This document shows, in pieces, positions 1,450 through 20,659 of a DNA stretch of 64,000 nt (the first letter of the stretch is position 1; each line of letters begins with the position of its first letter). The notes beneath the pieces were generated by a model. The model had not been told where the DNA came from, made no database searches, and saw only the letters and a list, made by a program, of their open reading frames with translations. The translations under genes were made by a program, and so were the position numbers. The stretch is from Verrucomicrobiia bacterium. Its GTDB lineage: Bacteria > Acidobacteriota > Terriglobia > Terriglobales > Acidobacteriaceae. The DNA lies in the NCBI GenBank assembly GCA_035508215.1, contig DATJNK010000012.1, forward strand, positions 32,007-96,006. Direction: 5' to 3'.

Positions 1450-1452
1450 CAA

Positions 1453-2682: not shown

Positions 2683-2814
2683 TCTACAAATCGCCCTCTG
2701 ATTCTGAGAGGCGGAAGCGGTCGCATCCTCCCTGGGAAAAGAAGCCCGCAGAAGGCTCGCGATCGGGCGGATGACCGACCAGAACAACGCTGTTCCATTA
2801 CCTACTGTTTCTAC

Positions 2815-3861: not shown

Positions 3862-3874
3862 GTCGACCTGGGTT

Positions 3875-4852: not shown

Positions 4853-4953
4853 TCGGTCTCTCCCCAGAAAACGTGTAACTCTACTCTTCTTTCCGGAAGG
4901 GAACAAGGTGCTATCGAGCAGGCGCAAGCGCTTTCTCTGCTATCCTTACGCGC

Positions 4954-5916: not shown

Positions 5917-5930
5917 GATCTCGCTATCCT

Positions 5931-7328
5931 TTATCCTTTCGGCTGGGCATAAGTCGAACGCTTCAGGAACTCCCCCTGGCCCGCCCTGCCGAAAAACTTG
6001 CCGCCTTCGACGACGACCCTGCCGCGCGAAAGCACGACCTCGGGCATCCCCGTGACTTCAATGCCTTCGAACATCGAATAATCGACCCGCATATGATGAG
6101 TCTTGGCGCTGATCGTGTGCCGCTGCTTCGGATTGAAGATCACCAGGTCCGCATCACTGCCAACCGCAATCGTCCCCTTGCGCGGATAAAGGCCGAACAA
6201 TTTGGCGGGTGTGGTTGACACAAGTTCGACGAATCGATTCGCGTTGAACCGGCCTCCGGCCACACCTCCCGAATAGATCAGACTCATCCGATGCTCGACG
6301 CCGGGGCCGCCGTTCGGAATTTTGGTGAAGTCGTCGCGTCCAAGTTCCTTCTGCTCTTTGAAACAGAAGGGACAATGATCAGTGGAGACCACCTGCAGGT
6401 GGTCGCGTTTCAGGCCATTCCAAAGTTTTTCCTGGTGCCACTTTTCCCGCAGCGGCGGCGTGAAGACATACTTCGCTCCCTCGAAGCCGGGGGCGTCGAA
6501 GTTCTCCAGGGAAAGATAAAGATACTGAGGGCACGTCTCGGCGTAGACGGGAAGTCCGCGATCGCGGGCTTCGCGCACCTTTTCGAGAGCGTCGTTGCAG
6601 CTCAAATGCACGATATAAATCGGCGCTCCCGCCATCTCCGCCAGGGCGATTGCTCGCGCCGTCGCCTCGGCTTCGGCGGTGGTTGGACGGGTGAGCGCGT
6701 GGTATTTTGGCGCTTTCTTTCCTTCGGCGAGGGCTTGCTGCACGATCACGTCGATCGCCGAGCCATTCTCGGCGTGCATGCAAACCAAGCCTCCATTCCT
6801 GGAGGTCGTTTGCAGCGCTTTGAAGATGCTGCCGTCGTCAAGCATGAACACTCCGGGGTAGGCCATGAAGAGTTTGAAACTGGTCACGCCTTCGTGGACC
6901 AAGTCATTCATCTCGGCGAGTTGCCCTCCGGAGATGTCCGTCACGATGCAGTGGAAAGCGTAGTCGCAGACTGCCTTCGACGCAGCTTTAGTCATCCAAG
7001 TGTCGAAGGCTTGCCGCAGAGCCTGGCCTTTGTACTGGATGGCGAAGTCGATCAGGGTCGTAGTTCCACCGAAGGCGGCCGCACGCGTACCGGTCTCAAA
7101 ATCGTCGGCGCTGGTTGTGCCGCCGAATGGCATGTCGAGGTGAGTATGAACGTCGATGCCTCCCGGGAGAACCAGTTTGTCCGAGGCGTCGAGAAGGTTG
7201 CCGGTGTTCTGCGCGGGAAGATCGCGTCCGATGGCGACAACCTTGCCGTTTGTGATCGCAACGTCGGCTGTGTATGTGTCGGTTGCTGTCACTAGCGAAC
7301 CGTTTCTGATGATGGTGTCAAAGGTCAT
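5931..7328 (-). CDS. hydA: dihydropyrimidinase / D-hydantoinase
   Basis: 465 aa cyclic amidohydrolase. It has GGIDVHTHLDMPFGGT (HxH metal site), the GTRAAAFGGTTT..DFA motif and a downstream VSTDHCPF motif, typical of dihydropyrimidinases. Confidence 0.88.
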   Translation of the reverse strand: MTFDTIIRNGSLVTATDTYTADVAITNGKVVAIGRDLPAQNTGNLLDASDKLVLPGGIDVHTHLDMPFGGTTSADDFETGTRAAAFGGTTTLIDFAIQYKGQALRQAFDTWMTKAASKAVCDYAFHCIVTDISGGQLAEMNDLVHEGVTSFKLFMAYPGVFMLDDGSIFKALQTTSRNGGLVCMHAENGSAIDVIVQQALAEGKKAPKYHALTRPTTAEAEATARAIALAEMAGAPIYIVHLSCNDALEKVREARDRGLPVYAETCPQYLYLSLENFDAPGFEGAKYVFTPPLREKWHQEKLWNGLKRDHLQVVSTDHCPFCFKEQKELGRDDFTKIPNGGPGVEHRMSLIYSGGVAGGRFNANRFVELVSTTPAKLFGLYPRKGTIAVGSDADLVIFNPKQRHTISAKTHHMRVDYSMFEGIEVTGMPEVVLSRGRVVVEGGKFFGRAGQGEFLKRSTYAQPKG

Positions 7329-7450
7329 GATGCCCTCGGCTGTAGACCTGGCAACGCCAGTCGGGATTGGAGAAAGAATTCTATGCTAAACTGCCGCCCT
7401 TTAGTTCTTCTCTGCCGGTTCCGGCATCTTTCACGGGAAGGGGACCCGCC

Positions 7451-8455
7451 ATGCAATTCGGTATTACTTTGAAGCCTGATATTTCTGTCGAGCGCATCGT
7501 CGGATTAACTCGGCAGGCCGAGTCTGCTGGATTCACCTATGGCTGGGTCTTTGATTCGCATGTTCTTTGGATGGAGCCGTATCCGCTCCTGACCCTGATG
7601 GCCGCCAACACCAAGGCCATGCGTCTGGGCACGTGTGTGACGAATCCCGCGACGCGTGATTTGAGTGTGACGGCAAGCCTGTTTGCCACGCTGAATCTGA
7701 TCTCCGGCGACCGAATGGAACTCGGCATCGGACGAGGTGATAGCTCGCGCCGCGTGCTCGGCAAGAAGCCTGTGAGCTGGTCGCAACTGGAAACCGCGGT
7801 GCAGGAGTTTCGTGCGCTCACTTCAGGCGCAGAAGTCCATCATGACGGGCAAACGACCAGGCTGAGTTGGGCAAAGAATTCTCCGCGAGTCTGGATCGCC
7901 GGTTATGGGCCCAAAGTGTTGCACATGGCGGGGCGTGTCGCAGACGGCATCATTCTGCAGTTCGCGGACCCGGCGCTCATTGAGTGGTGCCTGAGTTTCG
8001 TCCAGGAAGGCGCTCGAGCCGCAGGACGCGATCCGAAGCGGATTGAAGTGATGTCGGCCGCGCCGGTCTGGGTGTCAGATGATCTGCAGGTTGCTCGCGA
8101 ACGCGTCCGCTGGTTTCCGGCCCTGGTGTCGAACCACGTAGTGGACCTGATCCGGCAGTACAAGCCGGAAGATCTTCCTCCCGCGCTTACGTCTTATGTT
8201 CAGGATCGTGGCCACTACGATTATCAGCACCACTGCGAGGTGGGGAGCGATAATTCGGAATTCGTCTCCGATGAGGTTATCGACCGTTTCTGCCTGATTG
8301 GACCGGCGGAAGCGCACCAAAAGAAACTGCGCCAGTTGCGCGACGTCGGAGTCACGCAATTCAACATCTATCTGATGTGCGGCGACGAGGAGCAGACCCT
8401 CGACATCTACCAGCAAAGAGTCCTCCCCGCCATTTTGCAATCAAAGAAGTCGTAA
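7451..8455 (+). CDS. luciferase-like (LLM) flavin/F420-dependent oxidoreductase, Mer-like subgroup
   Basis: MQFGITLKP...GWVFDSHVLW...LGTCVTNPATRD...GIGRGDSSRRVLG resembles methylene-H4MPT-reductase-like F420-dependent LLM proteins. I chose the start at ATG 7451, which has a GGAAGGGG Shine-Dalgarno-like element upstream, over the 7367 ORF start. Confidence 0.75.
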   Translation: MQFGITLKPDISVERIVGLTRQAESAGFTYGWVFDSHVLWMEPYPLLTLMAANTKAMRLGTCVTNPATRDLSVTASLFATLNLISGDRMELGIGRGDSSRRVLGKKPVSWSQLETAVQEFRALTSGAEVHHDGQTTRLSWAKNSPRVWIAGYGPKVLHMAGRVADGIILQFADPALIEWCLSFVQEGARAAGRDPKRIEVMSAAPVWVSDDLQVARERVRWFPALVSNHVVDLIRQYKPEDLPPALTSYVQDRGHYDYQHHCEVGSDNSEFVSDEVIDRFCLIGPAEAHQKKLRQLRDVGVTQFNIYLMCGDEEQTLDIYQQRVLPAILQSKKS

Positions 8456-8462
8456 GCGCGAT

Positions 8463-9902
8463 CTAGGCTGCCGCAGGTGGAGTGAAAGCGTCCCTTCGAC
8501 CGGAAGCCATCATTACGTAATACGCGACGAACGAAACCGCGAATCCCACGAACCACGAATAATCGTAGAGCGGGCGCACCGAAGGCACCGCCAGTCCGGC
8601 CAGCGCTGCGCCGGCGCCCAGCCCAAGCGCAAGGATCGCGCGCCAGTTGAATCCCCGTGAGTATTCGTAGGCGCCATTTCGAAGATACAGATCGTCGACC
8701 ACCAACACCCGCCGTCGAATGAGGAAGTAATCGCAGATCATGATTCCTGCCACCGGCCCGAGAAACGCCGCGTAGCCGCCCAGCCAGCCGAGGATGAATG
8801 TTCTGTAGTTCGCCAGCAGTTTCCACGGCATGAGCGCAATTCCCATGAAGCAGGTGAGGATTCCGCCCGCGCGAAAGCTGATGCGACGAGGCCAAAGATT
8901 CGAGAAGTCATTTGCCGGAGAGACGACATTGGCTCCGATGTTGACATTCAGCGTGGCCAGCAAGATGGCGATCAGCGAAACTACGACTGCTGCCGGCGAG
9001 TGAAAGCGGCTCAGCAATTGCACCGGATCCCATATCGCCTGGCCATAGATCACAACGGTGGCTGAAGTGACCAGGATTCCAACCAATGCATAAAGCGTCA
9101 TGGTGGTCGGAAGGGCCAGCGCCTGCCCAATCACTTGCTCCTTCTGGTTCCGGGCGAAGCGCGTGAAGTCTGGAATATTCAAGGAAACGGTGGCCCAGAA
9201 TCCGACAGTGCCATTCAGCGCCGGGATGAGGAATTTCAGGAAATCAGAGAAGCTCTTGAAGCGCGAGGGCGCAGAGAGCATCGGGCCAAAACCACCCGCA
9301 GCGTGATACGCCCAACCGAGCAGAAGCAATCCGACGCCCAGCAGAACCGGTGCGCTGATTCCTTGCAGGATCCGAATGTACTCAATTCCCTTCACGACCA
9401 CCGCCAGGTTGATCAGCCAGAAAATCAGGAAGCAGATTGCCGGGCCGTAGGAAACATCTTTCCAGCCGGGGACGAGCGTCGCGAGAAGTGTGCTGATTGC
9501 TTCACCACCAATCCAGGCTTGAATCCCGAACCAGCCGCAGGCAACCAGGGCGCGAAGCACGGCAGCGACATTCGCTCCCAGCACGCCAAACGATGCGCGC
9601 GCCAGAACCGGGAACGGAACCCCGTATTTGGCGCCGGGATGCGAGTTCAGGAGCATGGGAACCAGCACGATGACGTTGCCGAGAAAAATCGTCGTGACCG
9701 CCTGACGCCAGTTCATCCCACCCTGAATCAGACTCGCCGCCAGCATGTAGGTGAGGATATTCACCGACATGGAAATCCACAAAGCCGCGAAGTTGTACGT
9801 TCCCCAGTGACGTTGCGCGGGGGTTGCCGGCGCCAGGTCGTGGTTATAGAGCGGGCTTGCCTGGATCTTTGCCGCGAGTGCGATGGGGTTTGATTCGCGC
9901 AT
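8463..9902 (-). CDS. NCS1-family nucleobase:cation symporter (cytosine/uracil/allantoin/hydantoin permease type)
   Basis: 479 aa with about 12 TM segments. N-terminal NHDLAP....R.WG.YNFAALWISMSVNI is the typical NCS1 signature. Confidence 0.85.
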   Translation of the reverse strand: MRESNPIALAAKIQASPLYNHDLAPATPAQRHWGTYNFAALWISMSVNILTYMLAASLIQGGMNWRQAVTTIFLGNVIVLVPMLLNSHPGAKYGVPFPVLARASFGVLGANVAAVLRALVACGWFGIQAWIGGEAISTLLATLVPGWKDVSYGPAICFLIFWLINLAVVVKGIEYIRILQGISAPVLLGVGLLLLGWAYHAAGGFGPMLSAPSRFKSFSDFLKFLIPALNGTVGFWATVSLNIPDFTRFARNQKEQVIGQALALPTTMTLYALVGILVTSATVVIYGQAIWDPVQLLSRFHSPAAVVVSLIAILLATLNVNIGANVVSPANDFSNLWPRRISFRAGGILTCFMGIALMPWKLLANYRTFILGWLGGYAAFLGPVAGIMICDYFLIRRRVLVVDDLYLRNGAYEYSRGFNWRAILALGLGAGAALAGLAVPSVRPLYDYSWFVGFAVSFVAYYVMMASGRRDAFTPPAAA

Positions 9903-9949
9903 GCTTCCTGGTGAGTGGGACGATTTGCCGGATTCCGAACGTCAGGTCT

Positions 9950-10843
9950 TCAGTCGGCAGCGATCGAACTTGCGCTCTGCATGGTCAGGGGGCCATAAGT
10001 CTCGGGACGACGATCGCGAAAGAATTGCCATACCCTTCGCACCTCAGTGATCATCTCGAGGTCGAGATCGGCAACTACGACTTCGTCTTTGTCGCGGCTG
10101 GCTTGGGCAATGATCTTTCCGCGAGGATTGCAGAAATAGCTCTTGCCGTAGAATTCGCCGATGCTCCACGGCTTCTCGGTCCCCACGCGATTGATCGCCC
10201 CCACAAAATAGCCGTTAGCGACCGCATGCGCGGGCTGCTCGAGCTCCCACAGATATTCGGAGAGGCCAGCCACCGTCGCCGACGGATTAAAGACAATCTC
10301 AGCGCCGTTCAGTCCGAGGATGCGCGCGCCTTCAGGAAAATGGCGATCGTAACAGATGTAGACTCCGACCCGAGCGTACTTGGTTTCAAACACGGGATAT
10401 CCCAGATCGCCCGGGGTGAAGTAGAACTTCTCCCAGAAGCCGGGATGGCAATGCGGAATGTGATGCTTACGATATTTTCCGAGGTAGCGGCCATCTGCAT
10501 CGATGACCGCGGCAGTATTGAAATATACGCCGGGCATCTGCTCTTCATACACCGGAACCACAATCACCATGTGATGCTTGGCAGCAACCTTCTGCATAAG
10601 TCGAACGGTCGGCCCGTCCGGGACCCGCTCGGTGAGTTCATACCAGCGCGCGTTTTGTTCGGCGCAAAAATATGGGCCATAGAAAAGCTCCTGGAGGCAC
10701 AAGATCTGCGTCTTCTTTTTAGCTGCTTGTTGGATCAGCTTCATGTGCTTGTCGAGCATGGCCTTTCGAATCTGCGCGAGCGGACGCTCGGTGCTGAGCG
10801 CATTGCTGGCTTGAATCAAGGCACAGCGGACGATACGGGGCAT
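9950..10843 (-). CDS. beta-ureidopropionase-like carbon-nitrogen hydrolase (nitrilase superfamily)
   Basis: 297 aa. It carries the CN-hydrolase catalytic E-K-C context (LCLQELF..., YRKHHIP, VYICYDRHFPE) and the C-terminal FFRDRRPETY typical of eukaryote-type beta-alanine synthases. Strong GGAGGA RBS upstream. Confidence 0.8.
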   Translation of the reverse strand: MPRIVRCALIQASNALSTERPLAQIRKAMLDKHMKLIQQAAKKKTQILCLQELFYGPYFCAEQNARWYELTERVPDGPTVRLMQKVAAKHHMVIVVPVYEEQMPGVYFNTAAVIDADGRYLGKYRKHHIPHCHPGFWEKFYFTPGDLGYPVFETKYARVGVYICYDRHFPEGARILGLNGAEIVFNPSATVAGLSEYLWELEQPAHAVANGYFVGAINRVGTEKPWSIGEFYGKSYFCNPRGKIIAQASRDKDEVVVADLDLEMITEVRRVWQFFRDRRPETYGPLTMQSASSIAAD

Positions 10844-10956
10844 GACTCCTCCAGACTCGACTTTCGAGGAACGAAACTATAGCAGAAATTGTGGCGCAGA
10901 AAGCGGGCAGGCGCGAGATTCGAAGCCGGGATTGCTCGCGTTACTCGACATTGACA

Positions 10957-10985
10957 TTGACATGCCCTAAGACGCTGGCTACACT
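10957..10985 (+). promoter_or_regulatory. sigma-70-type promoter candidate for rbsK
   Basis: TTGACA (10957-10962), a 17-nt spacer, then TACACT (10980-10985), about 30 nt upstream of the rbsK ATG. A second overlapping TTGACA lies 6 nt upstream (ATTGACATTGACAT). Confidence 0.4.
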
Positions 10986-11017
10986 CGCCCTTCTTTGAAC
11001 TTCAGCCTCCGGAGCTT

Positions 11018-11947
11018 ATGGCAAAACGCCCGCGAATCGTGGTAGTCGGCAGCGCGAACATCGATCTCACGACATTTACCAATCAATTTCCGAAGCCGGG
11101 CGAAACCCTGTTTGCGGAGAGATTCGACCTGGGTTTCGGCGGGAAAGGCGCGAATCAGGCGGTGGCCGCCAGGCTGTGCGGCGCGGAGGTTTTCATGGTC
11201 GCGCGCGTGGGCAGCGATCTCTTCGGCCCCGCGACAATTGAGAACTTTCGCAAACAAGGGATCGACCCGACACACGTAAAACAGGTCGCAGGACTGTCGA
11301 GCGGTGTGGCTCCGATCTTTGTCGAGTCCAACGGACAGAATCGGATCCTGGTGGTGAAAGGCGCCAACGATGCATTGAAACCCTCAGACGTGGATGCGGC
11401 CGCCGAGACTCTGAAGACTGCCGACTGCATCGTGCTGCAGTTCGAAATCCCGCTCGAGACGGTTTACTACACTGTCGATTTTGCCCGGCGCAATAATATC
11501 CGCTGTATTGTGAACCCGGCGCCGGCGCAACCGGTCGATCTTTCAGCGCTCCGGGATCTGGATTACTTTGTTCCCAACGAGAGCGAGGCGGAGGCCATCG
11601 CGGGCGCGCCCGTGAAGAATCTGGACGACGCCAGGAAATGCGCCGAACGAATGCTGAAGGCGGGAATTCGCAGAGTAATTATCACTCTCGGGGCGAAGGG
11701 GTGCCTCCTGGCCGGCAGCGAGGGATGCGACCACATTCCACCGTTCAAAGTGGAGAGTGTCGACAGCACCGGGGCGGGAGACGCATTCATTGGCAGCTTT
11801 GCCGTCTTTCTCGGCGAAGGAGCCCCGGAAAAAGAAGCATTGCGGCTCGCCAATCTCTACGCTGCTTTATCCACCACAGGGGTTGGAACGCAGAAATCGT
11901 TCTACGACCGTGCCCGCTTCGACGCCCAGTGGGCTGCTCGCCGCTGA
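11018..11947 (+). CDS. rbsK: ribokinase
   Basis: VVVGSANIDL, GGKGANQAVAA and the C-terminal DSTGAGDAFIGSFA (PfkB signature 2) are present. 309 aa. Confidence 0.9.
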   Translation: MAKRPRIVVVGSANIDLTTFTNQFPKPGETLFAERFDLGFGGKGANQAVAARLCGAEVFMVARVGSDLFGPATIENFRKQGIDPTHVKQVAGLSSGVAPIFVESNGQNRILVVKGANDALKPSDVDAAAETLKTADCIVLQFEIPLETVYYTVDFARRNNIRCIVNPAPAQPVDLSALRDLDYFVPNESEAEAIAGAPVKNLDDARKCAERMLKAGIRRVIITLGAKGCLLAGSEGCDHIPPFKVESVDSTGAGDAFIGSFAVFLGEGAPEKEALRLANLYAALSTTGVGTQKSFYDRARFDAQWAARR

Positions 11948-12115
11948 GTAGGAACCGTTGTTTTCGCAGAACATAACTTGTGTTTCGCGACCGTTTCGTC
12001 GTGCTCTGCCAGCCTGCCGGTCGCAGATTCGCTGAAAGAACGAAGCCTTCGACATTTCTGCTGATTGCGATTCAGAAAATGACGACGAACGGCGCTGTTG
12101 TCTCGCCGAAAAGTC

Positions 12116-12144
12116 TTGACTTACCGACGAGCGGAGATTTATAA
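12116..12144 (+). promoter_or_regulatory. sigma-70-type promoter candidate for the TonB-dependent receptor
   Basis: TTGACT (12116-12121), a 17-nt spacer, then TTATAA (12139-12144), about 90 nt upstream of ATG 12233. Confidence 0.4.
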
Positions 12145-12232
12145 GCCGAGTCTGCGGTCGGGGGCTCTCCCAGGTTCAATCTGCGGGAGAATACTCTCTT
12201 TTTGGGGCAGGCCGCCGAAAGGGGTTCAGTCG

Positions 12233-15200
12233 ATGCCAAGCACGAAGATGCTTGTCGCAGTGGTGGTGTCAGCGCTGGTTTTTGTGTGCGGTCCCTTTGC
12301 GTTGGGTCAGGCGACCGGCAGCTTTTCGGGCACGGTGTCGGACAACTCGGGAGCTGTCATCGCCGGCGCGAAAGTGACAGTCACTGCTCAGGCGACGAAT
12401 ATCTCGCGCCAGGCGCCGACCGATGATAGCGGGCACTACATTGTGCCGCTGCTTGGCGTTGGCGAATACACGGTCCGAGTCGAGGCCGCAGGCTTCAAAC
12501 CGGGTGAGTCGAAAGACATTCGCCTGCAAATCGACGAACACCGCGAGCTGGACTTCAAGCTGGTTCCCGCCTCAGTGACAACCAATGTTGAAGTGAGCGC
12601 AACCGAAGTAGCGGTCGAAACGTCCACTCCAACGCTCGGTCAAGTCATTACTGCTGAAGAAGTGTCCGAACTGCCGCTGAACGGGCGAAATTTCGTACAA
12701 CTGGCGACCCTTACCCCCGGCACCACGGCCTCCACGAGTCCGGTGAGTTTCTTCACGAGCGCGGCGAGCAGCGAGGCTGCCACGCGTGGTTCCTTTTCGC
12801 TTTCGGTGGGTGGTTCGCGAGAACAGGAAACCGACTGGCTCCTCGATGGCAACGACAATAACCAACTCGATGAAGGCGGCATCGCCATCTTCTCGTCTAT
12901 CGACGACATCCAGGAGTTCAAGGTTCTCACCTACAACTATTCTGCAGAATTTGGCGAGCGCGCCGGCCCGACCGTGCTGGTGACAACCAAGTCGGGATCG
13001 AATCAGTTTCACGGATCGGTGTTCGAGTTCTTCCGCAACACCAAGCTCGACGCCCGCAGTTACTTCGCGAGTTCGGTTGAGAAATTCAACTTAAACCAGT
13101 TTGGGGGGTCTCTCGGCGGTCCGATCAAGAAGGACAAGACATTTTTCTTTGTAGATTATCAAGCGAAAATGCAGCGGCACGGGATACCATTCACCGGCTT
13201 CGTTCCTACGACCGCGATGTATACACCGGACGCAAATGGCAATTACGACTTCAGCGGCACCGCCACTGGGAGGCAGCTGAATGACCCGTTCTCCGGTTCA
13301 CCTTTCCAGTGCCTGCCGGGCACCTCGACTTCGGAACCCGTCTTGGCAGATGGGAGTCAGCCGACAGGTCAGAATTGTAACGTTATCCCGGGCGCGCTCG
13401 CGAGCCCGATCGGCCAGCAGATTCTGCAACTTTATCCGGCCCCGAACGTGAGCGGAGCCGGCTATAACTACGTTAACGAGCCGGTAAGAAAGCTGAATGA
13501 GGGGACATTTGACGTTCGGCTGGACCACTCCTTCTCGAACAAAGACTCCGCCTTTGCGCGCTTCAGCTACGATCAGGCGACGAACTTCGTCCCCGGCGGC
13601 TCACCGACGTGGGCCGAAGTCAACGCGTTTGGCAGCAATCAGCATATCGAGAATCATGGCCGCAACCTGGCAATTTCGGAAACCCACATCTTTTCCTCCA
13701 GCACCATCAACCAGGCGAGCGTTGGTTTCAATCGCATCTTCAACCACATTCTTTCCTTCGGCACAGACGGCAGCTGCAAAGCGGCGCTGATCGGCATTCC
13801 GGGTTCAGATCTGGGAGCGGCGTGCGATGGGATCACAGGCTACCCAGCCAGCCTCAATCAGTCCAGCAAGGATTGCATCAGTTGTGGCATGACGTCCTTC
13901 CTGATGTCGAACTACATGTCGGTGGGCGATCGCGGCTATTCTCCCTACCAGGGCGGCACCAACGTCTATTCGATTTCTGACACGCTCGACTTGATTCGCG
14001 GGAAACATAATCTGCGCGTCGGCGCCGTCTATCGCGCTAACGAAATGAACATCCGGAACAACGCCTTCCAGGACGGGTTCGCGGTTGAGAACGCAATGTG
14101 GACGGGCGATGATGCAGCCGATCTGCTGCTGGGAGCGTGGGGTGTATTCGCCGCGCACGACCAGACGTTCTTGGGCGGGACGGTTGGCCGTCGCTGGAAG
14201 CTGTTTCGCCCATTTGTGCAAGACGATTGGCGTGTAACCAACAACCTTACGGTGAACATCGGCGTGGCGTGGGCGCTGGCAACACCGGAAACCGAAGTTG
14301 GACACCGCCAGGCGAATTTCGATATCCAGACCCTGAAGTGGTATGTCCCGAAGGGAAGTCCGACGTTAGACACCTGCACCGTCTGCATTGCCAGTGACGC
14401 ACGAGCTGGAATTCAGCTGGACAAGACAGCGTTCGAGCCGCGCATCGGGTTGTCCTGGAAACCGATGGGCAGCGACAAGACTGCGATTCGTGCCGGCTAC
14501 GCCATCTATCACGATTCTGCCTGGAATCAAGGCGGACAAGGACTCTGGCAGAACCCGCCTTACTATGCCGAAGTCGATCCGTGCGCCTTCTGCTTCTCGT
14601 ACGGAAGCGCGTTCGGAGCGCTCGGAGGGGGTTTCCTGTTGGCACCGGATACCCCATCTGCTCTCAATGTTCCAGGTGGCGCCATCTACGACGCCCCGGT
14701 CAATCCGGCGGACTACAGCGGAACCATCCAATCGATGAACCGGAATTTCAAGCAGGGCATGGTGCAACAGTACAACCTGAACGTGGAACACCAACTCCCT
14801 GGCAACGTTGTGCTCACGGCAGGTTATGCCGGCTCGAAGAGCACGCACATTCTGGTCGGCCAGTCGAACGAGAACCTCAATGAACCGAGCGCCTGCCCGG
14901 GCGAGCCGAATGAGACCGCGGGCTACACCGTCGGCTGTGGCTTTGGGAATTTTCCTTATGCGTTGGCTTTTCAGAGCGTGAGCGCGAACAACAGCGTTGG
15001 GACCGCGCGATATGATTCCCTGCAGGTGAAAGCCGAGACCAAGAGTTCGCGGCACGGGCTTTACGCTCTGCTTGGCTACACCTGGTCGCGCACGTTTGAC
15101 TCCGGCATGCCCGATGGTCTGGGCACCAATCCCGGTGCAATCTACTATCCGCTGCCCGGGTACAAGAAGCTTGACTGGGGATTGTCGCAGCTCAACCTGA

Positions 15201-15817
15201 ATGACAGCTTCACGGCGAGCGTTCTTTATGACTTGCCCTTCGGCAAGGGGAAACACTTCGGCAGCAACTGGAACGGAGCCACCAATACTGTCTTCGGCAA
15301 CTGGCAACTGGATCTGATCGAACGCGCAACCTCGGGATTTCCCCTCTTTGTGGTTGACAGCGCGGATGAGTCCGGGACCTTTTTCTCGTACAACGGCGGC
15401 ACCTATCAACGCCCGAACCAAGTCGGGGATCCAAACCGGCCCGGCCCCGTGGCCGGGAATCCTGGGTGCACTGCGCCGTCGCAGATTCACACGATACAGA
15501 ACTGGTTCAATCCTTGCGCTTTCATGCAGGCGCCGACCGGAGAGCTAGGCACGGCAGCTCGAGCGCCAGTGTATGGTCCGCGTTTCGTAAACACGGATTT
15601 CTCGATCATCAAGGACTTTCCGTTCCCCTGGCGTGAAGGCATGAACCTGCAGTTCCGAGCTGAATTCTTCAATCTGTTTAACCATCCGCAGTTCTTCCTG
15701 CAAGGAGCCGGAGGCAGTGGTGAGCAGGATATCAACGCGTCGGCGACGTTTGGGGTAATCAACGCGACGGTGAATAATCCCCGGCTTATTCAGTTTGCAT
15801 TGAAACTGAGGTTCTGA
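12233..15817 (+). CDS. TonB-dependent receptor with N-terminal carboxypeptidase-regulatory-like domain
   Basis: Signal peptide MPSTKMLVAVVVSALVFVCGPFALGQA. CarboxypepD_reg-like segment GSFSGTVSDNSGAVIAGAKVTV...DDSGHYIVP..GEYTVRVEAAGF. Plug region (LNGRNFVQLATLTPG) and a long barrel ending ...FALKLRF with terminal aromatic residue. Start set at ATG 12233 rather than the 12098 ORF start. Confidence 0.85.
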   Translation: MPSTKMLVAVVVSALVFVCGPFALGQATGSFSGTVSDNSGAVIAGAKVTVTAQATNISRQAPTDDSGHYIVPLLGVGEYTVRVEAAGFKPGESKDIRLQIDEHRELDFKLVPASVTTNVEVSATEVAVETSTPTLGQVITAEEVSELPLNGRNFVQLATLTPGTTASTSPVSFFTSAASSEAATRGSFSLSVGGSREQETDWLLDGNDNNQLDEGGIAIFSSIDDIQEFKVLTYNYSAEFGERAGPTVLVTTKSGSNQFHGSVFEFFRNTKLDARSYFASSVEKFNLNQFGGSLGGPIKKDKTFFFVDYQAKMQRHGIPFTGFVPTTAMYTPDANGNYDFSGTATGRQLNDPFSGSPFQCLPGTSTSEPVLADGSQPTGQNCNVIPGALASPIGQQILQLYPAPNVSGAGYNYVNEPVRKLNEGTFDVRLDHSFSNKDSAFARFSYDQATNFVPGGSPTWAEVNAFGSNQHIENHGRNLAISETHIFSSSTINQASVGFNRIFNHILSFGTDGSCKAALIGIPGSDLGAACDGITGYPASLNQSSKDCISCGMTSFLMSNYMSVGDRGYSPYQGGTNVYSISDTLDLIRGKHNLRVGAVYRANEMNIRNNAFQDGFAVENAMWTGDDAADLLLGAWGVFAAHDQTFLGGTVGRRWKLFRPFVQDDWRVTNNLTVNIGVAWALATPETEVGHRQANFDIQTLKWYVPKGSPTLDTCTVCIASDARAGIQLDKTAFEPRIGLSWKPMGSDKTAIRAGYAIYHDSAWNQGGQGLWQNPPYYAEVDPCAFCFSYGSAFGALGGGFLLAPDTPSALNVPGGAIYDAPVNPADYSGTIQSMNRNFKQGMVQQYNLNVEHQLPGNVVLTAGYAGSKSTHILVGQSNENLNEPSACPGEPNETAGYTVGCGFGNFPYALAFQSVSANNSVGTARYDSLQVKAETKSSRHGLYALLGYTWSRTFDSGMPDGLGTNPGAIYYPLPGYKKLDWGLSQLNLNDSFTASVLYDLPFGKGKHFGSNWNGATNTVFGNWQLDLIERATSGFPLFVVDSADESGTFFSYNGGTYQRPNQVGDPNRPGPVAGNPGCTAPSQIHTIQNWFNPCAFMQAPTGELGTAARAPVYGPRFVNTDFSIIKDFPFPWREGMNLQFRAEFFNLFNHPQFFLQGAGGSGEQDINASATFGVINATVNNPRLIQFALKLRF

Positions 15818-15846
15818 CAGACTCTGAAATGTATACGGGAAAATCG

Positions 15847-15884
15847 GGGCAGACTGGAGAGTCTCCGGTCTGCCCTTTGCTTTT
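15847..15884 (+). terminator. Rho-independent terminator after the TonB-dependent receptor gene
   Basis: GGGCAGACTGGAGA-g-TCTCCgGTCTGCCC hairpin followed by TTTGCTTTT, 30 nt after the stop codon. Confidence 0.7.
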
Positions 15885-15914
15885 CGAAGAGTCGGCGAAT
15901 CTTTAGGAGAAACC

Positions 15915-17015
15915 ATGGGGTCTTGGGGTTTGAGACGGACATTGTTGGGAGTTATTCTTCTTTCCAGTTCGCTGGCGGCGCAGAAGATCAAAATCATCGT
16001 GGACCAGGATGCCCGCGGCCCCGGAACCAGTGATCAACAAGCGATTCTTGTCTTCCTCCAGTCGGAGAAGTTCGATGTCCTCGGGATCACGACCGTCAGC
16101 GGCGACCAGTGGGTGAAGGAAGAGACCCAGCACGCTCTTCGTCTATTGGAAATTTCCGGGCACGCAGATGTCCCCGCCTATCAGGGCGCCGAATTTCCGC
16201 TCCTCAACTCCAAAGAAGAAACCGAGCGCTGGGAGGCGCTCTACGGAAAGCTCGAATACAAGGGCTGCTGGACCGACTTCGAAGCCAACCGCTCCACAAT
16301 TTACCGCGAGCCTTATCACGGGCCGGATATCGTGCCACCGATGCCGGAGGGTGAGCCGCATATTCACGCTCAGCCCGGAACTGCCGCTGAGTTTATCGTC
16401 CAGATGGTCCACAAGTATCCCGGGGAAGTCGTCTTGTGGGCGGGAGGTCCGCTGACCAACTATGCGCTTGCTTTGAAACTCGATCCTTCCATCGCAGGCC
16501 TGGCAAAAGAGTTTGTCTTGATGGGCAGCGGCCTCTACGCTGACAAGGGTGCCATCGACGCTGGAGCGATTGACGCGCGGCGGGAATTCAACTGGTGGTT
16601 CGATCCAGAAGCGGCGCGTATCGTGCTGCGCGCTCCATGGAAGAAGATGACCATTACCCCGATCGACATTTCCGTCAAGACCCGCTTCACTTCGGAAATG
16701 AAGGCGACCATCGCGAAGGCCGACACCCCGATCACTCGCTATATCGACAAATACTCGCTGCCCGGCTACATGTGGGATGAAATTGCCGGGGTGGCTCTGA
16801 TCGATCCATCGATCATTACCGGCGAGAAGAGGCTCTATATGGATATCGACATCGACCATGGAGCCAGTTATGGCAAGACTTTATTCTGGGATGCGTCGGC
16901 TTCGGTCCCGCCGTACGAACGCCTGGCCAACGTTCAATTCGACATTGACGCAGAGAAGTTCTACAAGATATTCATCGACCTGATGACACGCCCTCCGGGC
17001 GGAGAGCCGAAATAA
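15915..17015 (+). CDS. secreted nucleoside-hydrolase-family protein, divergent subgroup (paralog 1)
   Basis: Signal peptide (LLGVILLSSSLAAQ). IUNH-like fold markers are present (IIVDQDARGPGTSDQQAIL, VLGITTVSGDQW, GGPLTNYALAL, NWWFDPEAARIV), but the aspartate cluster is interrupted. AGGAGA RBS upstream. Confidence 0.75.
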   Translation: MGSWGLRRTLLGVILLSSSLAAQKIKIIVDQDARGPGTSDQQAILVFLQSEKFDVLGITTVSGDQWVKEETQHALRLLEISGHADVPAYQGAEFPLLNSKEETERWEALYGKLEYKGCWTDFEANRSTIYREPYHGPDIVPPMPEGEPHIHAQPGTAAEFIVQMVHKYPGEVVLWAGGPLTNYALALKLDPSIAGLAKEFVLMGSGLYADKGAIDAGAIDARREFNWWFDPEAARIVLRAPWKKMTITPIDISVKTRFTSEMKATIAKADTPITRYIDKYSLPGYMWDEIAGVALIDPSIITGEKRLYMDIDIDHGASYGKTLFWDASASVPPYERLANVQFDIDAEKFYKIFIDLMTRPPGGEPK

Positions 17016-17033
17016 GATCCAGGGACTCGTCTT

Positions 17034-18128
17034 GTGATCCTCACCGCGAACCTCATGCAAAGATCGAGATACGTTTCTGCAGGCGCGCTTTTGTTGGCAT
17101 CCACCCTCACGCTGGCTGCGCCCCGACGAAAGATCATCATCAACGAGGACTGCTCCGGGCCGGGTGGAAGCAACATGCAAACCGTGGCTCTTCTGGTGCA
17201 GTCGCCGGAAGTGGAAGTACTCGGCGTGACCGTGGTCAGCGGCGATCAATGGCGCGACGAAGAGGTAGCGCACACCTTGCGCCTGCTCGAAATCATGGGG
17301 CGCGCCGATATCCCGGTTGTTCCCGGCGCAGAGTTCCCGCTGGTGCGAACGCGAAGAGAAGAGCAGTTCTGGCAAGCGCAGTATGGCAAAGTCGCCTACG
17401 CCGGAGCCTGGGACGATCGCTGGTGGCACGAAGCCTCCGTCATTCCCGAACTGCCCGAGGGTTCCCCGACCGCGAAAGCACTCAACGAAGACGCGGCGCA
17501 TTTCCTGATTCGGATGGTGCACCGGTATCCGCATCAAGTGACAATCTACGAAGGCGGGCCCATGACGAACCTCGCGCTCGCCATCTCGCTCGACCCAGAA
17601 TTTCCTGAACTGGCGCAGGAACTCGTGTTTATGGGCGGCAGCCTGAGTCCGGAGACCAATAACCCTGAGTTCCTGAACAATCCGCGCCACGAGTTCAACT
17701 TCTGGTTCGATCCAGAGGCGGCAGAGATTGTTCTACGCGCGCCCTGGAAGAAAATCACGTGCACTCCGGTCGACATCTCGGTGAAGACCCATTTGACCGA
17801 AGCGCTCGTCAAGCAGATTGAGGCGAGTGGGACGCCGCTGGCCCGCTATATTGCCCGCTTCGCCATGCTTACTCCCGGAGCGGACATCATGTGGGACGAA
17901 TTGGCCGCCGCTGCCTGGATTGATCCCTCGCTCATCACGAAAACTGAGACTCGCCACATGGGAGTGGACCTCGACCGCGGCGCTGGATATGGAAATACCG
18001 TAACCTGGCCGGCGACGAGTGATGCTAAGGCGGCCGCTCAGCCGGTTGCGATCCAAATGGATCTCAATAAAGAAAAGTTCTATCGCATGTTCGTGACTCG
18101 GATGAGCGCCTCCACGCCCGCGCCCTGA
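17034..18128 (+). CDS. secreted nucleoside-hydrolase-family protein, divergent subgroup (paralog 2)
   Basis: Clearly homologous to the preceding gene along its whole length (VLGVTVVSGDQW, GGPMTNLALAI, NFWFDPEAAEIV). The N-terminal motif is degenerate: IIINEDCSGPGGSNMQ. The start may be GTG 17034 or ATG 17055 (MQRSRYVSAGALLLAS... signal peptide). Confidence 0.7.
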   Translation: MILTANLMQRSRYVSAGALLLASTLTLAAPRRKIIINEDCSGPGGSNMQTVALLVQSPEVEVLGVTVVSGDQWRDEEVAHTLRLLEIMGRADIPVVPGAEFPLVRTRREEQFWQAQYGKVAYAGAWDDRWWHEASVIPELPEGSPTAKALNEDAAHFLIRMVHRYPHQVTIYEGGPMTNLALAISLDPEFPELAQELVFMGGSLSPETNNPEFLNNPRHEFNFWFDPEAAEIVLRAPWKKITCTPVDISVKTHLTEALVKQIEASGTPLARYIARFAMLTPGADIMWDELAAAAWIDPSLITKTETRHMGVDLDRGAGYGNTVTWPATSDAKAAAQPVAIQMDLNKEKFYRMFVTRMSASTPAP

Positions 18129-18194
18129 TTTCTGTCGCATGCTGGCACCTGACGGGGCGGACAGCATACAATGCTGCCTTGCGAGCTTTTTGAA

Positions 18195-18671
18195 ATGTCT
18201 CCCATTCCCGACGATCTTTCCACCATCAAAGATGACATGATCGCCTTCATTGAAGGCCACGGCATGCGCCGGTTCCACGGCTTCGTCGATTACGAGGAAG
18301 TGCAGTGCATCATGTGGGAGATGGGCGACAACCCTGAAGGCTGGAAGGATTTCGTGGAACTCGCCAAGACTGCGGGTGCGCCTTTTCTGACCATGCACTC
18401 GTGGACCCTGGAGCGCGAAGAGCTCGATGAGCTGGTGCAGCGCCTGACGAGCTCGGAGTTCACAGACGGCGACGACGTCGAAGATGCTCGCTGGCTGCGC
18501 GCTCATGCCGGCAAAGTGGGATATCTGCAACTGGGATGGGCCTATCAGGGTTCGATGTTTCTGTGTGAGGTTTCCGCCGAGTGGTATGAACGCTACCAGC
18601 GTCTGCTCGAAGTCTCCGACGAATTTGGCGGAATCACCCTCGACGAACCCGATCAGGACGAAGAGAACTAG
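18195..18671 (+). CDS. hypothetical strongly acidic protein
   Basis: ORF 18171-18671, with a likely start at ATG 18195 (MSPIPDD). It is D/E-rich throughout and ends DEPDQDEEN. Its stop lies 2 nt before the recJ GTG start, which suggests translational coupling. I recognise no family. Confidence 0.5.
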   Translation: MSPIPDDLSTIKDDMIAFIEGHGMRRFHGFVDYEEVQCIMWEMGDNPEGWKDFVELAKTAGAPFLTMHSWTLEREELDELVQRLTSSEFTDGDDVEDARWLRAHAGKVGYLQLGWAYQGSMFLCEVSAEWYERYQRLLEVSDEFGGITLDEPDQDEEN

Positions 18672-18673
18672 CC

Positions 18674-20659
18674 GTGCGCTGGGATCTTCGTTGTGTGGAC
18701 GACGAACCGGTTCGCATCCTCGCCGCAACCCTTTTAGAGTTGCCTGCGCTCAAGGCGAAGCGTGGTTCTTCCCAGAACTCGCAGGAGGTGTGCTCGATTC
18801 TGGCCGGCCTCCTTCTGCGTCGCGGGATCTCGGACGCCGATTCAGCCGGGCATTTCCTGTCGCCTTCGCTTGCGCATCTTCATCCGCCGAGCCTGATGTC
18901 TGGCCTGCCCGCCGCCGTTGACCGCATTTCTGCCGCCATCGCGCGCCACGAGCCGATTCTCATCTACGGCGACTACGACGTGGACGGCACGATGGCTGTG
19001 ATCATCCTGAAAACGGCGATCGAGCTGTGTGGAGGCACCGCCAACTTTCACGTCCCTCACCGCATTCGTGAAGGCTACGACATGCGCGACGACGTGATCG
19101 AGCGAGCCGCGGCGGCGGGAATTCGGCTCATCATCAGCGTCGACATGGGCATTCGCGCCTTTGCTCCGGCTGAAACGGCGAAGCGCCTGCAAGTCGACCT
19201 GATCGTCACCGATCACCACTTGCCCGGCCCAGACGGCATACCCCCGGCTTTTGCGGTCGTGAATCCGAATCAGAATGGATGCGGCTATCCGTACAAGCAG
19301 CTCTGCGGCGCCGGCGTGGCGTTCAAAGTGGCGGAGGGGTTGATGCGGCGACATCTCGATGACAAAGACCAGAACAAGCTCCTGCTGTCGTTCATGAAGG
19401 TCGTTGCCATCGCTACCGTGGCCGATGCCGTGCCGCTCACGGGCGAGAATCGCGTCTTCGCTTCCCTGGGGCTCGACGCTCTACGGAGAGCGGTGAATCC
19501 GGGATTGAAGGCTCTGCTCGAGGTAGCGCAAGTTTCTCCCAACCGCCCGCCAACTTCAGTCGAGGTCGGATTCCGCATCGCGCCGCGCATCAATGCGGCC
19601 GGCCGCATGGATGTAGCTCGCGACGTGATCGAGTTGTTCAGCGTGAAAGAGCCGGAGCGCGCCAGGGAACTGGCGGCGAAGCTCGACCAGCTCAACACCG
19701 AGCGGCAAGAAGAGGAACGACGAATCCTGCGGGCGGTCGAGGAGCGCTTCTCCGGTGACCCGTCCTTGTGCGATGCCTACTGCATCGTCGTCGATGGCGA
19801 CGGCTGGCACCGCGGAGTCATTGGCATTACCGCGACGAGAATTGTCGAGCGTTATAACCGTCCGACGGTCGTGATTTCCCGGGAGGGGACAGAGGCCTTC
19901 GGATCGGGCCGATCGATTCGCGCTTTCCACCTGCTGGAGGCGATCGAATCCTGCAGCGCTTTGTTCTCGCGATACGGTGGCCATGGGCATGCTTGTGGAT
20001 TTGCCATGCCCGCGAAGAATGTCGAGTCTCTGCGGACGCAGCTTGACGCTTTTGCCCGAAAACGGCTCACCATCCAGGATTTTGACCCGGTTCTCGAAGT
20101 GGATGCGGAAGTCGACTTAACCGATGTGACTCCGGCGTTTTTTCAGGCGCTGAGCATGTTAGAGCCATACGGAGTCGGCAATCCCGAGCCCGTCTTTTCC
20201 GCCCACGGTGTTGAACTGATGGCGCCTCCGCGAATCCTGAAAGAAAAGCACGTGAAGCTGAAGCTTCGTGCGGGAAAGCGCGAAGCGAAATCGGCCGCCG
20301 CGGCGCCGGAGCAATCACCCGAGCTTTCCGCCGAGGCCATCCTGACGTCGCCCCGGTGCCATCCGGACGGGGCAGCGATCCGCCGCAGCGAGAAGACCGC
20401 AGCCGCAGCCGAGCGCGTGGCAGGGGATGCGCAAAGCGCAGCGGATCGCAAACCGGGATCGACGCTGCGGGTCACCTTTGATGCCCTGGCCTGGAACATG
20501 GCCGAGAGGCTGGACCAGACACCGCTGCTGGCGGGCGATCCGCTCGATATAGCCTTCACGATCGGTCACAACGACCATCCCGAATATGGTGGCCTGGAGC
20601 TCACGTTGCGGGATTTCCGCGTCCAAGAAACGCAGACAGAAGGAAAACGCAACCTCTAG
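18674..20659 (+). CDS. recJ: single-stranded-DNA-specific exonuclease RecJ
   Basis: DHH-family motifs ILIYGDYDVDGTMAV, SVDMG, LIVTDHH, and DHHA1-type GGHGHACG. 661 aa. Confidence 0.9.
   Translation: MRWDLRCVDDEPVRILAATLLELPALKAKRGSSQNSQEVCSILAGLLLRRGISDADSAGHFLSPSLAHLHPPSLMSGLPAAVDRISAAIARHEPILIYGDYDVDGTMAVIILKTAIELCGGTANFHVPHRIREGYDMRDDVIERAAAAGIRLIISVDMGIRAFAPAETAKRLQVDLIVTDHHLPGPDGIPPAFAVVNPNQNGCGYPYKQLCGAGVAFKVAEGLMRRHLDDKDQNKLLLSFMKVVAIATVADAVPLTGENRVFASLGLDALRRAVNPGLKALLEVAQVSPNRPPTSVEVGFRIAPRINAAGRMDVARDVIELFSVKEPERARELAAKLDQLNTERQEEERRILRAVEERFSGDPSLCDAYCIVVDGDGWHRGVIGITATRIVERYNRPTVVISREGTEAFGSGRSIRAFHLLEAIESCSALFSRYGGHGHACGFAMPAKNVESLRTQLDAFARKRLTIQDFDPVLEVDAEVDLTDVTPAFFQALSMLEPYGVGNPEPVFSAHGVELMAPPRILKEKHVKLKLRAGKREAKSAAAAPEQSPELSAEAILTSPRCHPDGAAIRRSEKTAAAAERVAGDAQSAADRKPGSTLRVTFDALAWNMAERLDQTPLLAGDPLDIAFTIGHNDHPEYGGLELTLRDFRVQETQTEGKRNL

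Follow-up and report, generated by a model that had tools for sequence, protein, structure and literature searches.

Two adjacent genes, here called A and B, lie on the forward strand of a 64,000-nucleotide stretch of DNA (contig DATJNK010000012.1; hereafter the window), directly downstream of a gene for a TonB-dependent-type outer-membrane receptor. Both encode proteins of the nucleoside hydrolase (NH) family in which the active-site fingerprint is altered, and both belong to a large clade with this alteration. The G+C content of the window is ~59%; among named genomes, it is most closely related to metagenome-assembled genomes of Terriglobia and 'Candidatus Sulfotelmatobacter'. The two genes are as follows.

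15915-17015, + strand: gene A, a putatively exported NH-family protein of 366 amino acids with an ATG start and signal-peptide-like residues 1-22
17034-18128, + strand: gene B, its putatively exported NH-family paralogue, 364 amino acids when read from GTG 17034

In the Pfam profile search both proteins scored far above the PF01156 (IU_nuc_hydro) cut-off of 34.2 bits, A with 181.4 bits (E 4e-53) and B with 195.1 bits (E 2.8e-57); no NCBIfam equivalog exceeded its cut-off for either. They are 45% identical to each other. AlphaFold2 models of A (predicted local distance difference test, pLDDT, 83.4; predicted template-modelling score, pTM, 0.86) and of B (pLDDT 82.5, pTM 0.84) are confident except in an insertion in the β3-β4 crossover, and the three-layer α/β NH fold is seen in both. 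All top Foldseek matches of the A model were NH crystal structures, with target-normalised TM-scores of 0.73-0.85 and 20-27% identity. More than 4700 homologues of A were found at E ≤ 1e-10, orthologues of A and B share 75-89% identity, and the database labels of such proteins are merely 'nucleoside hydrolase' or 'purine nucleosidase'. The true start of B is probably the in-frame ATG at 17055 (MQRSRY..., 357 amino acids), as suggested by the N-termini of orthologues and the ATG codon itself. The public gene call for B (P0121, 317 amino acids) begins at Met48, which cuts off the signal peptide together with the altered fingerprint; the B orthologues, with 355-374 amino acids, favour the longer open reading frame. 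Automated annotation would thus mask the very feature of interest.

The active-site residues were mapped on the NH of Leishmania major (PDB 1EZR, residues 3-300, reconstructed from a HMMER alignment) by a MAFFT alignment of this enzyme with A, B, the two canonical NH paralogues of the window and 67 full-length representatives of 50%-identity clusters. A 40-sequence orthologue alignment, a HMMER pairwise alignment (for A) and hhalign profile-profile alignment were used as cross-checks, and all were concordant. In characterised enzymes Asp10 is the general base and a Ca2+ ligand, Asp14 binds ribose and takes part in a proton relay, and Asp15 is a Ca2+ ligand (PMC8910321; bioRxiv 10.1101/574913). 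The motifs were located as listed below.

16002-16037, + strand: modified fingerprint of A, DQDARGPGTSDQ (residues 30-41, D30-Q-D32-ARG-PG-T-S39-D40-Q)
16098-16112, + strand: SGDQW of A (residues 62-66), with Asp64 at the canonical Asn39 position
Residues 177-182 of A, + strand: GGPLTN
16578-16616, + strand: RREFNWWFDPEAA of A (residues 222-234), with Glu224 and Asn226 corresponding to Glu166 and Asn168; Arg222 is clade-specific
16770-16781, + strand: MWDE of A, with Trp287 in place of the leaving-group His241, Asp288 as the putative last Ca2+ ligand and the clade-specific Glu289
17142-17177, + strand: modified fingerprint of B, NEDCSGPGGSNM (residues 37-48, N37-E-D39-CSG-PG-G-S46-N47-M)
Residues 69-73 of B, + strand: SGDQW, with Asp71 at the canonical Asn39 position
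Residues 174-179 of B, + strand: GGPMTN
Residues 218-230 of B, + strand: RHEFNFWFDPEAA, with EFN kept
17889-17900, + strand: MWDE of B, with the Trp, the putative last Ca2+-ligand Asp and the Glu

Position by position, the correspondence with the canonical enzymes reads:

Asp8 (first fingerprint Asp): Asp30 in A, Asn37 in B
Asp10 (general base, Ca2+ ligand): Asp32 in A, Asp39 in B
Between Asp10 and PG (no residues in canonical enzymes): ARG inserted in A, CSG inserted in B
Asp14 (ribose binding, proton relay): Ser39 in A, Ser46 in B
Asp15 (Ca2+ ligand): Asp40 in A, Asn47 in B
Asn39 (canonical Gly-Asn): Asp64 in A, Asp71 in B
Glu166 and Asn168: kept in A and in B
His240 of L. major NH (His241 in Crithidia fasciculata; leaving-group activation): Trp in A and in B
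Asp241 (last Ca2+ ligand): kept in A and in B

The strict DxDxxxDD fingerprint of NHs is present in neither protein, the spacing being six residues rather than three and the third Asp being Ser in both. The His directly before the last Ca2+-ligand Asp, which is the hallmark of group I, is likewise replaced, and the Trp found there (Trp287 in A and its equivalent in B) is the hallmark of group II. The general-base Asp is invariant in 40 of 40 aligned sequences, and Glu166 and Asn168 contact ribose in NH structures. The metal of canonical NHs is bound by Asp10, Asp15, the backbone carbonyl at the Thr126 position and Asp242. By alignment, all four Ca2+ ligand positions would be present in A (Asp32, Asp40, the GGPLTN loop and Asp288), while B would offer Asp39, the GGPMTN loop, the MWDE Asp and, at position 15, Asn47.

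The initial annotation had described a disrupted catalytic aspartate cluster in both proteins, and all the motifs that it quoted were found where it had placed them. Asp14 is indeed lost in both, and B also has Asn for Asp8 and for Asp15. Nevertheless, A retains Asp8, Asp10, Asp15 and Asp241/242, and B retains Asp10 and Asp241; as A keeps all the Ca2+ ligand positions and B changes one, the description is too strong. The reported change of the first Asp to Asn holds for B and not for A, and the inserted residues are not GPG but ARG (A) or CSG (B), placed ahead of the canonical PG. The same annotation had held that its proposal would fail if alignment to characterised enzymes returned all the catalytic and Ca2+ ligands; in the MAFFT, HMMER and hhalign alignments A comes near to this, with Asp14 lost in A and B.

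Two assignments were considered and dropped. The HMMER pairwise alignment of B with the Leishmania enzyme places Asp39 on Asp8 and Ser41 on Asp10, but the family-wide MAFFT alignment and hhalign keep the invariant Asp column. A purine activity deduced from a Tyr pair of helix α8 (Tyr276 and Tyr280 in A) was abandoned, as MAFFT does not align this pair with Tyr225 and Tyr229 of L. major NH. For the His/Trp of the β3-α3 loop and for Asn160 the alignments conflict, and the region is of low confidence in both models.

The altered fingerprints are conserved. The A-type motif VDQDARGPGTSDQQ is invariant in 19 of 19 sequences of the orthologue alignment, and the B-type motif INEDCSGPGGSNMQT is conserved in 18 of 19, the exception having Phe for the Ser of CSG. 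Such constancy among orthologues that are 75-89% identical argues for purifying selection. Across the clade a common signature emerged: [ST]-[DN] where canonical enzymes have DD, Gly-Asp for Gly-Asn39, and Trp-Asp-Glu at the last Ca2+ ligand. The Glu after the last Asp is found in 32 of 44 clade members versus 1 of 20 relatives with the canonical fingerprint, an Arg two residues before Glu166 in 20 of 44 versus 0 of 20, and the leaving-group position is Trp in 31 of the 44 clade representatives. The loop between Asp10 and position 14 has six residues. Position 15 is Asp or Asn in about equal numbers, Asn168 is invariant, and Glu166 varies in distant members (Asp, Ala, Ser, Gly). The β3-β4 crossover comprises 51-61 residues versus 34 in L. 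major NH (17-27 longer); it contains the conserved Trp106 and Trp119, and helices were modelled in it, one in A and two in B, at pLDDT ~40-65. With its own signature and the motif conservation described above, the distinct subfamily proposed in the initial annotation is borne out.

Positions 14 and 39 were compared among the 50%-identity cluster representatives, the counts being uncorrected for phylogeny:

Position 14 not Asp, position 39 Asp: 40 representatives
Position 14 Asp, position 39 Asn: 19 representatives
Position 14 not Asp, position 39 Asn: 4 representatives
Position 14 Asp, position 39 Asp: 0 representatives

The swap thus covaries strictly in this set, as would suit a carboxylate that has been transferred out of the fingerprint helix into the Gly-Asp loop.

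Comparison with structurally known NHs places the clade nearest to group I. The C. fasciculata and L. major IU-NH, the Escherichia coli RihA, RihB and RihC and the plant NRh were the best PDB matches of the clade profile (E 3e-49 to 1e-39), and share with A and B the Pfam family, the fold, Asp10, Glu166, Asn168, the last Ca2+-ligand Asp and the GGxxTN loop. The identity is, however, only 22-27%, and A and B differ by DxD-x6-S-[DN] for DxDxxxDD, Asp for Asn39, Trp for His241 with a Glu next to it, and the crossover of 51-61 residues versus 34. Moreover, the N-termini of A and B are signal-peptide-like; the E. coli enzymes, by contrast, reside in the cytoplasm (PMC5437708).

A second set of likenesses leads to group II. 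The NH groups are defined by His, Trp or Cys before the last Ca2+-ligand Asp, and a Trp there is the stacking residue of group II (Degano, PMC8910321). The same review covers, besides the extra helices of the group II β3-β4 crossover, the hybrid IG-NH, an NH that binds Na+ and has an altered fingerprint, and the inactive XopQ; the fingerprint of A and B is not described in it. The IAG-NHs of Trypanosoma vivax and T. brucei have Trp260 before the last Ca2+-ligand Asp, Asp40 at the Asn39 position and extra crossover helices; A and B resemble them in the first two of these and may do so in the third, and Asp40 is part of the IAG-NH binding pocket (PMC4660014). Unlike A and B, these eukaryotic enzymes keep the Asp14-Asp15 pair. 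By the clade profile the closest overall relationship is not to the IAG-NHs, whose chains matched with E 1e-21 to 1e-13, nor to IG-NH (3e-28), both far weaker than group I. The T. brucei IG-NH (PDB 3FZ0) already combines a group I-like fold with stacking on Trp, and with a group I-like overall sequence, a group II Trp and an Asp40-like residue, A and B look like another hybrid. PDB 8OI7, a Trichomonas vaginalis riboside hydrolase, was considered as a clade member and rejected as a distant match.

Compared with the cytoplasmic paralogue of the window (4954-5916), A and B have 22-29 extra N-terminal residues, which begin with basic residues, continue as a hydrophobic core and end in small residues (..LAA/QK and ..LAA/PRRK). 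These extensions stop 3-6 residues ahead of the first strand of the fold and are modelled by AlphaFold2 as a lone helix; they lack conservation even among orthologues that share 75-89% identity in the mature part. No lipobox Cys was found in them. Judged by this composition, the N-termini are signal-peptide-like, in line with the signal peptides claimed initially, and Sec export of A and B to the periplasm is the default reading. Tat export of A, for which Arg-Arg at residues 7-8 might be invoked, was ruled out because the pair lacks conservation among the orthologues.

Between the receptor gene and gene A, which are 97 nt apart, two further features were located.

15846-15886, + strand: GC-rich hairpin (GGGCAGAC..GTCTGCCC) with a T-rich tract; the stem-loop (15846-15876) has 14 pairs, 9 of them GC
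15905-15909, + strand: AGGAG ribosome-binding site of gene A, 5 nt before the ATG, read from the sequence

The stem-loop is followed by TTGCTTTTCG. It occurs once in the window and at the same position in many relatives, and in 13 aligned sequences 12 pairs are predicted, 7 of them with compensatory changes. The outer stem (GGGCAG...CTGCCC) is near-invariant across loci whose receptors share only 56-78% identity; the inner stem covaries and the loop changes in length (L001, L003-L007, L009, L016, L030, L039, L053, L055, L065 and the window). A search against Rfam returned nothing at the gathering threshold, the matches over the hairpin being microRNA families at chance level. A dispersed repeat of the REP (repetitive extragenic palindromic) type was ruled out by the single copy in 64 kb and the positional conservation in relatives, and a protein-binding palindrome is less likely than an RNA hairpin given loops of 3 to ~20 nt and the compensatory stem changes.

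The hairpin looks like an intrinsic terminator or attenuator. It had been taken initially as a strong terminator that may make A and B a separate transcription unit. The hairpin itself is real and conserved; the separate unit is doubtful, since the 38 nt from its end to the ATG of A, which include the AGGAG site, leave no obvious room for a promoter. We infer that it acts as a partial terminator or 3'-end stabiliser setting the ratio of receptor to enzyme. Transcripts begun at the ribokinase/receptor promoter would then read through it into A and B, although a further promoter might overlap with the receptor gene at its 3' end.

The genes upstream of A belong to nucleoside, ribose and pyrimidine metabolism:

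94-1449: pyrimidine-nucleoside/thymidine phosphorylase
1453-2682: CNT nucleoside carrier
2815-3861: canonical NH with a signal-peptide-like N-terminus, VIIDTDPGIDDA
3875-4927: DMT-type carrier with ureide-permease and sugar-transport matches
4954-5916: cytoplasmic canonical NH with no N-terminal extension, FLIDTDTASDDA
5931-7328: dihydropyrimidinase (TIGR02033 above cut-off)
7367-8455, + strand: LLM-class F420-type oxidoreductase of the TIGR03842 family (415.6 bits, cut-off 295.45)
8463-9902: NCS1 permease
9950-10843: CN-hydrolase, probable β-ureidopropionase
10957-10985: promoter-like TTGACA-17-TACACT
11018-11947, + strand: ribokinase, first gene of a likely rbsK-receptor-NH unit (TIGR02152, 341.8 bits, cut-off 299.65)
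12098-15817, + strand: TonB-dependent-type outer-membrane receptor with CarboxypepD_reg (E 4e-21) and OMP_b-brl_4 (E 3e-200)

The receptor reading frame starts at TTG 12098, and a signal-peptide-like stretch begins at Met46 (nt ~12233). Against PF01156 the canonical paralogues score 303 and 291 bits versus 181 and 195 for A and B. The whole of 94-18128 forms one nucleoside/ribose/pyrimidine catabolic supercluster, whose gene order is largely kept in four related loci (L001, L003, L006, L054). No gene for a dihydropyrimidine dehydrogenase of the PydA/PreTA type was found in the first 20 kb of the window. The LLM-class oxidoreductase stays conserved beside the dihydropyrimidinase and the CN-hydrolase, and it might supply the missing step of uracil/thymine reduction.

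The neighbourhood recurs in relatives. Eighty related genome loci were compared, almost all from Acidobacteriota with a few labelled Binatia or Xenobia, and 69 of them had enough upstream sequence to judge synteny. A receptor homologue lies at most 3 kb upstream of an A/B-type NH on the same strand in 48 of the 69, directly adjacent in 28; a ribokinase homologue is found in 35 of the 69 and at least two NH genes in 38 of the 69. In other lineages (L019, L022, L023), relatives ~50% identical to A or B adjoin a ribokinase and a DMT-type transporter. An arrangement of receptor, B, a 166-residue hypothetical protein and RecJ, with A missing, is common, and A-type copies also occur in A-canonical-B triads; A thus appears to be an added paralogue and not an obligate partner of B. 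Such triads of A-type, canonical-type and B-type genes form extra NH cassettes in Terriglobia genomes (L008, L011, L012, L014, L016, L059, L080 and others), and some Terriglobia loci hold at least two A/B-type copies, the family being expanded to a multi-paralogue set. In the window, the acidic 166-residue protein (18171-18671, + strand) has no Pfam or NCBIfam match, and its stop abuts the start of recJ (18674-20659, + strand); it is kept at 83-90% identity between a B-type NH gene and recJ in many Terriglobia loci. Several relatives (for example, the loci L013 6280-7899 and L043 6063-7766, both − strand) contain a divergent gene of ~540-570 codons between receptor and NH genes, whose product starts like a signal peptide, resembles CarboxypepD_reg in its N-terminal part and has TPR-like repeats; this gene is absent from the window.

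The clade as a whole is large, mostly acidobacterial and spread over several phyla. Distant members were found in Mesorhizobium, Rhizobium, Novosphingobium, Devosia and Paraburkholderia, with signal-peptide-like N-termini together with [ST]-[DN], Gly-Asp and Trp-Asp-Glu, and cultured members occur in Rhizobium, Novosphingobium, Mesorhizobium (sp. BR1-1-16, WP_224575292.1) and Paraburkholderia. Gly-Asp and Trp-Asp-Glu are common to a Rhizobium bangladeshense protein (plasmid p4, WP_207609563.1; L084, 7974-9059), in which Glu166 is Ala (DAFN) and whose gene lies between those of a LysR regulator and a NUDIX hydrolase, and to a protein of Novosphingobium sp. KACC 22771 (L083, ~8870-9990), in which Glu166 is Asp (TDFN). 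No receptor gene lies beside the NH gene in the Rhizobium and Novosphingobium loci examined, plasmid and chromid relatives included. Neither the PDB nor the searchable literature contained a characterised or structurally solved member of the clade, and no literature was found on this fingerprint variant or on an acidobacterial receptor-NH cassette.

Known extracytoplasmic NHs give a context for such a locus. Pseudomonas aeruginosa Nuh (PA0143) is reported to be a periplasmic NH which hydrolyses adenosine and inosine (PMC5437708), and is similar by its published description, external purine nucleosides being used via the released ribose and base; it differs in having no dedicated outer-membrane transporter known (PMC5437708) and in being regulated by quorum sensing. 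In the Rus locus of Bacteroides thetaiotaomicron (RusC/D, RusNH, RusGH, RusK1/K2, RusT), the gene of a SusC-type receptor is clustered with those of a periplasmic NH, of ribokinases and of a transporter (bioRxiv 10.1101/574913). The locus described here likewise joins a TonB-dependent transporter, putatively exported NHs, a ribokinase and inner-membrane carriers, and recurs in relatives. Unlike A and B, RusNH has the canonical DXDXXXDD, and the receptor here is of the acidobacterial CarboxypepD_reg type and not SusC. The SusD lipoprotein and surface glycoside hydrolase of Rus have no counterpart between the receptor gene and A; no SusD-like lipoprotein was found within 94-20659, where the other genes examined were all assigned otherwise. 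Conversely, nucleoside/base carriers and pyrimidine-degradation genes are added here relative to Rus. XopQ/HopQ1 of Xanthomonas and the NH-like domain of Sde_0182 of Saccharophagus also have the NH fold and are secreted or extracytoplasmic, but stand outside classical hydrolysis. XopQ has no leaving-group residues, an 80-residue N-terminal addition and an enlarged pocket, whereas both the Trp and the general base are retained in A and B, and XopQ-type PDB chains (4KL0, 4P5F) matched the clade profile marginally (E 1.7e-4).

Taken together, these results make it probable, in our judgement, that A and B are catalytically active, Sec-exported periplasmic N-ribohydrolases of a large uncharacterised clade of the IU-NH fold, acting in a receptor-linked nucleoside-scavenging locus. 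Family, fold, residue mapping, conservation, covariation and synteny are direct results of the analysis, whereas export, metal binding, activity, substrate range and the cargo of the receptor are deduced. Ribosides, most likely nucleosides from nucleic-acid debris, would enter through the upstream TonB-dependent receptor and be split to ribose and base in the periplasm, by A and B as well as by the canonical exported paralogue (2815-3861). The DMT-type carrier (3875-4927) and the NCS1 permease may then take up the products, with the CNT carrier serving intact nucleosides, and in the cytoplasm ribokinase, pyrimidine-nucleoside phosphorylase, dihydropyrimidinase and CN-hydrolase would use them. 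By alignment, the chemistry would follow the standard NH mechanism, with the second shell rewired. Asp32 of A and Asp39 of B would act as general base and Ca2+ ligand; the metal would be held also by Asp40 (A) or Asn47 (B), a backbone carbonyl of GGP(L/M)TN and Asp288; and ribose would be held by the Glu and Asn of the EFN motif. In place of Asp14, the residue at the Asn39 position (in A, Asp64) may supply the carboxylate. Activation of the leaving group would occur by stacking on Trp287 and not by a His proton relay; the Trp suggests the manner of activation known from the purine-specific group II and from IG-type enzymes, though not necessarily the same specificity.

Several observations weigh against this interpretation. 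B has Asn at the bidentate Ca2+ ligand and at the first Asp, and Asn occupies position 15 in roughly half of the clade, so the affinity for the metal or its identity could differ. The spatial replacement of Asp14 by Asp64 is proposed from the alignment and from a covariation uncorrected for phylogeny; since the trypanosomal IAG-NHs possess both Asp14 and Asp40 (PMC4660014), an Asp at position 39 need not be compensatory. Equivalents of Trp83 (the second stacking residue) and Asn160 were not placed, the alignments being in conflict and the insertion having pLDDT below 50. RusNH, the one periplasmic NH with a receptor link that has been studied, has weak enzymatic activity (bioRxiv 10.1101/574913), and the searchable literature yielded no clade member with biochemistry. 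Moreover, the proteobacterial relatives have no adjacent receptor, which makes the receptor link lineage-specific.

It is possible, if rather unlikely, that A and B are active on ribosides with an altered sugar or an unusual aglycone, while the canonical paralogue at 2815-3861 takes the common nucleosides. Candidate substrates would then include 5'-substituted ribosides (nicotinamide mononucleotide, ADP-ribose, NAD, nucleotides, methylthioadenosine), modified nucleosides of RNA, and ribosides whose sugar is deoxy or 2'-modified. The changes of the clade gather at the sugar contacts, around the 5' and 3' side of the ribose (Asp14 to Ser/Thr, Asn39 to Asp, the Arg near the 5'-OH ligand Glu166, the Glu after the last Asp); in the wider clade Glu166 is replaced by Asp, Ala, Ser or Gly; the Asn160 loop is longer and unalignable; and three different exported NHs in one locus suggest a division of labour. 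There are precedents, as XopQ binds ADP-ribose, an NH-fold enzyme of T. vaginalis takes nicotinamide riboside, and a 2'-O-methyluridine hydrolase has been reported. Nevertheless, Glu166 and Asn168 are retained in A and B, the neighbours are ordinary genes of nucleoside, ribose and pyrimidine catabolism, and the ribokinase among them implies free ribose, not ribose-5-phosphate, as the product; no direct evidence was obtained for any particular alternative substrate. A more far-reaching proposal, which we regard as doubtful, joins several of these elements into a fourth structural and mechanistic NH group. Its carboxylate would now sit in the Gly-Asp loop and no longer in the fingerprint helix, its bidentate ligand would be Asp or Asn, a new Arg and Glu would line the 5' side of the sugar, and its substrates would reach beyond the canonical range to 5'-substituted, 2'-modified and other non-standard ribosides from decaying RNA and cofactors; together with CarboxypepD_reg-type receptors, it would form nucleoside utilisation loci and give soil Acidobacteria a major, so far unrecognised way of harvesting nucleic-acid necromass.

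That A and B are non-catalytic periplasmic pseudo-enzymes, which bind ribosides or ribose and pass receptor cargo to the inner-membrane carriers, seems to us improbable. Such a role, by analogy with XopQ, the NH-like module of Sde_0182 and the glycan-binding proteins of polysaccharide utilisation loci, would suit the departure from DxDxxxDD (two of the four Asp missing in B, one in A), the position directly after the receptor gene, the very weak activity of RusNH in the analogous Bacteroides locus and the existence of inactive NH-fold proteins (PMC8910321). It is difficult to reconcile with a general-base Asp that is invariant in 40 aligned sequences, with the retention of the last Asp, Asn168 and Glu166 in A and B and of the leaving-group Trp in 31 of 44 clade members, and with a complete set of Ca2+ ligand positions in A; XopQ, being monomeric, without leaving-group residues and with a much enlarged pocket, is a different case. 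We know of no arrangement in which binding proteins serve NCS1, CNT or DMT carriers. The non-catalytic binding role considered in the initial annotation is thereby made less likely, through the conservation of general base, Glu166, Asn168 and leaving-group Trp, and the genes also travel with ribokinase and ribose-type transporters. The lower Pfam scores (181 and 195 bits, below the canonical 303 and 291), the altered fingerprint and the short public gene call for B (P0121) could, finally, be read as decay of duplicated canonical hydrolases with no selected function. Both frames are, however, intact and of full length, homologues number in the thousands and occur in several phyla, the motifs are invariant or near-invariant and the AlphaFold models are confident outside the insertion; the conservation data count this explanation out, and it is effectively refuted.

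DxDxxxDD is the accepted hallmark of NHs, used for annotation and for judging catalytic competence, and a very large natural clade, known from thousands of metagenomic sequences and from cultured bacteria, breaks it in a conserved and apparently compensated manner. The enzyme family is well understood and the logic of the locus is familiar, so the surprise is moderate. A single characterised member would show the limits of rearrangement in the Ca2+/ribose site, and whether Asn is able to replace the bidentate Asp. Acidobacteria have dozens of CarboxypepD_reg-type TonB-dependent receptors of unknown cargo, and for one of these the locus offers nucleosides or related ribosides as a testable class. 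Periplasmic cleavage would then be a scavenging strategy of these bacteria, parallel to that of Rus in Bacteroides and Nuh in P. aeruginosa.

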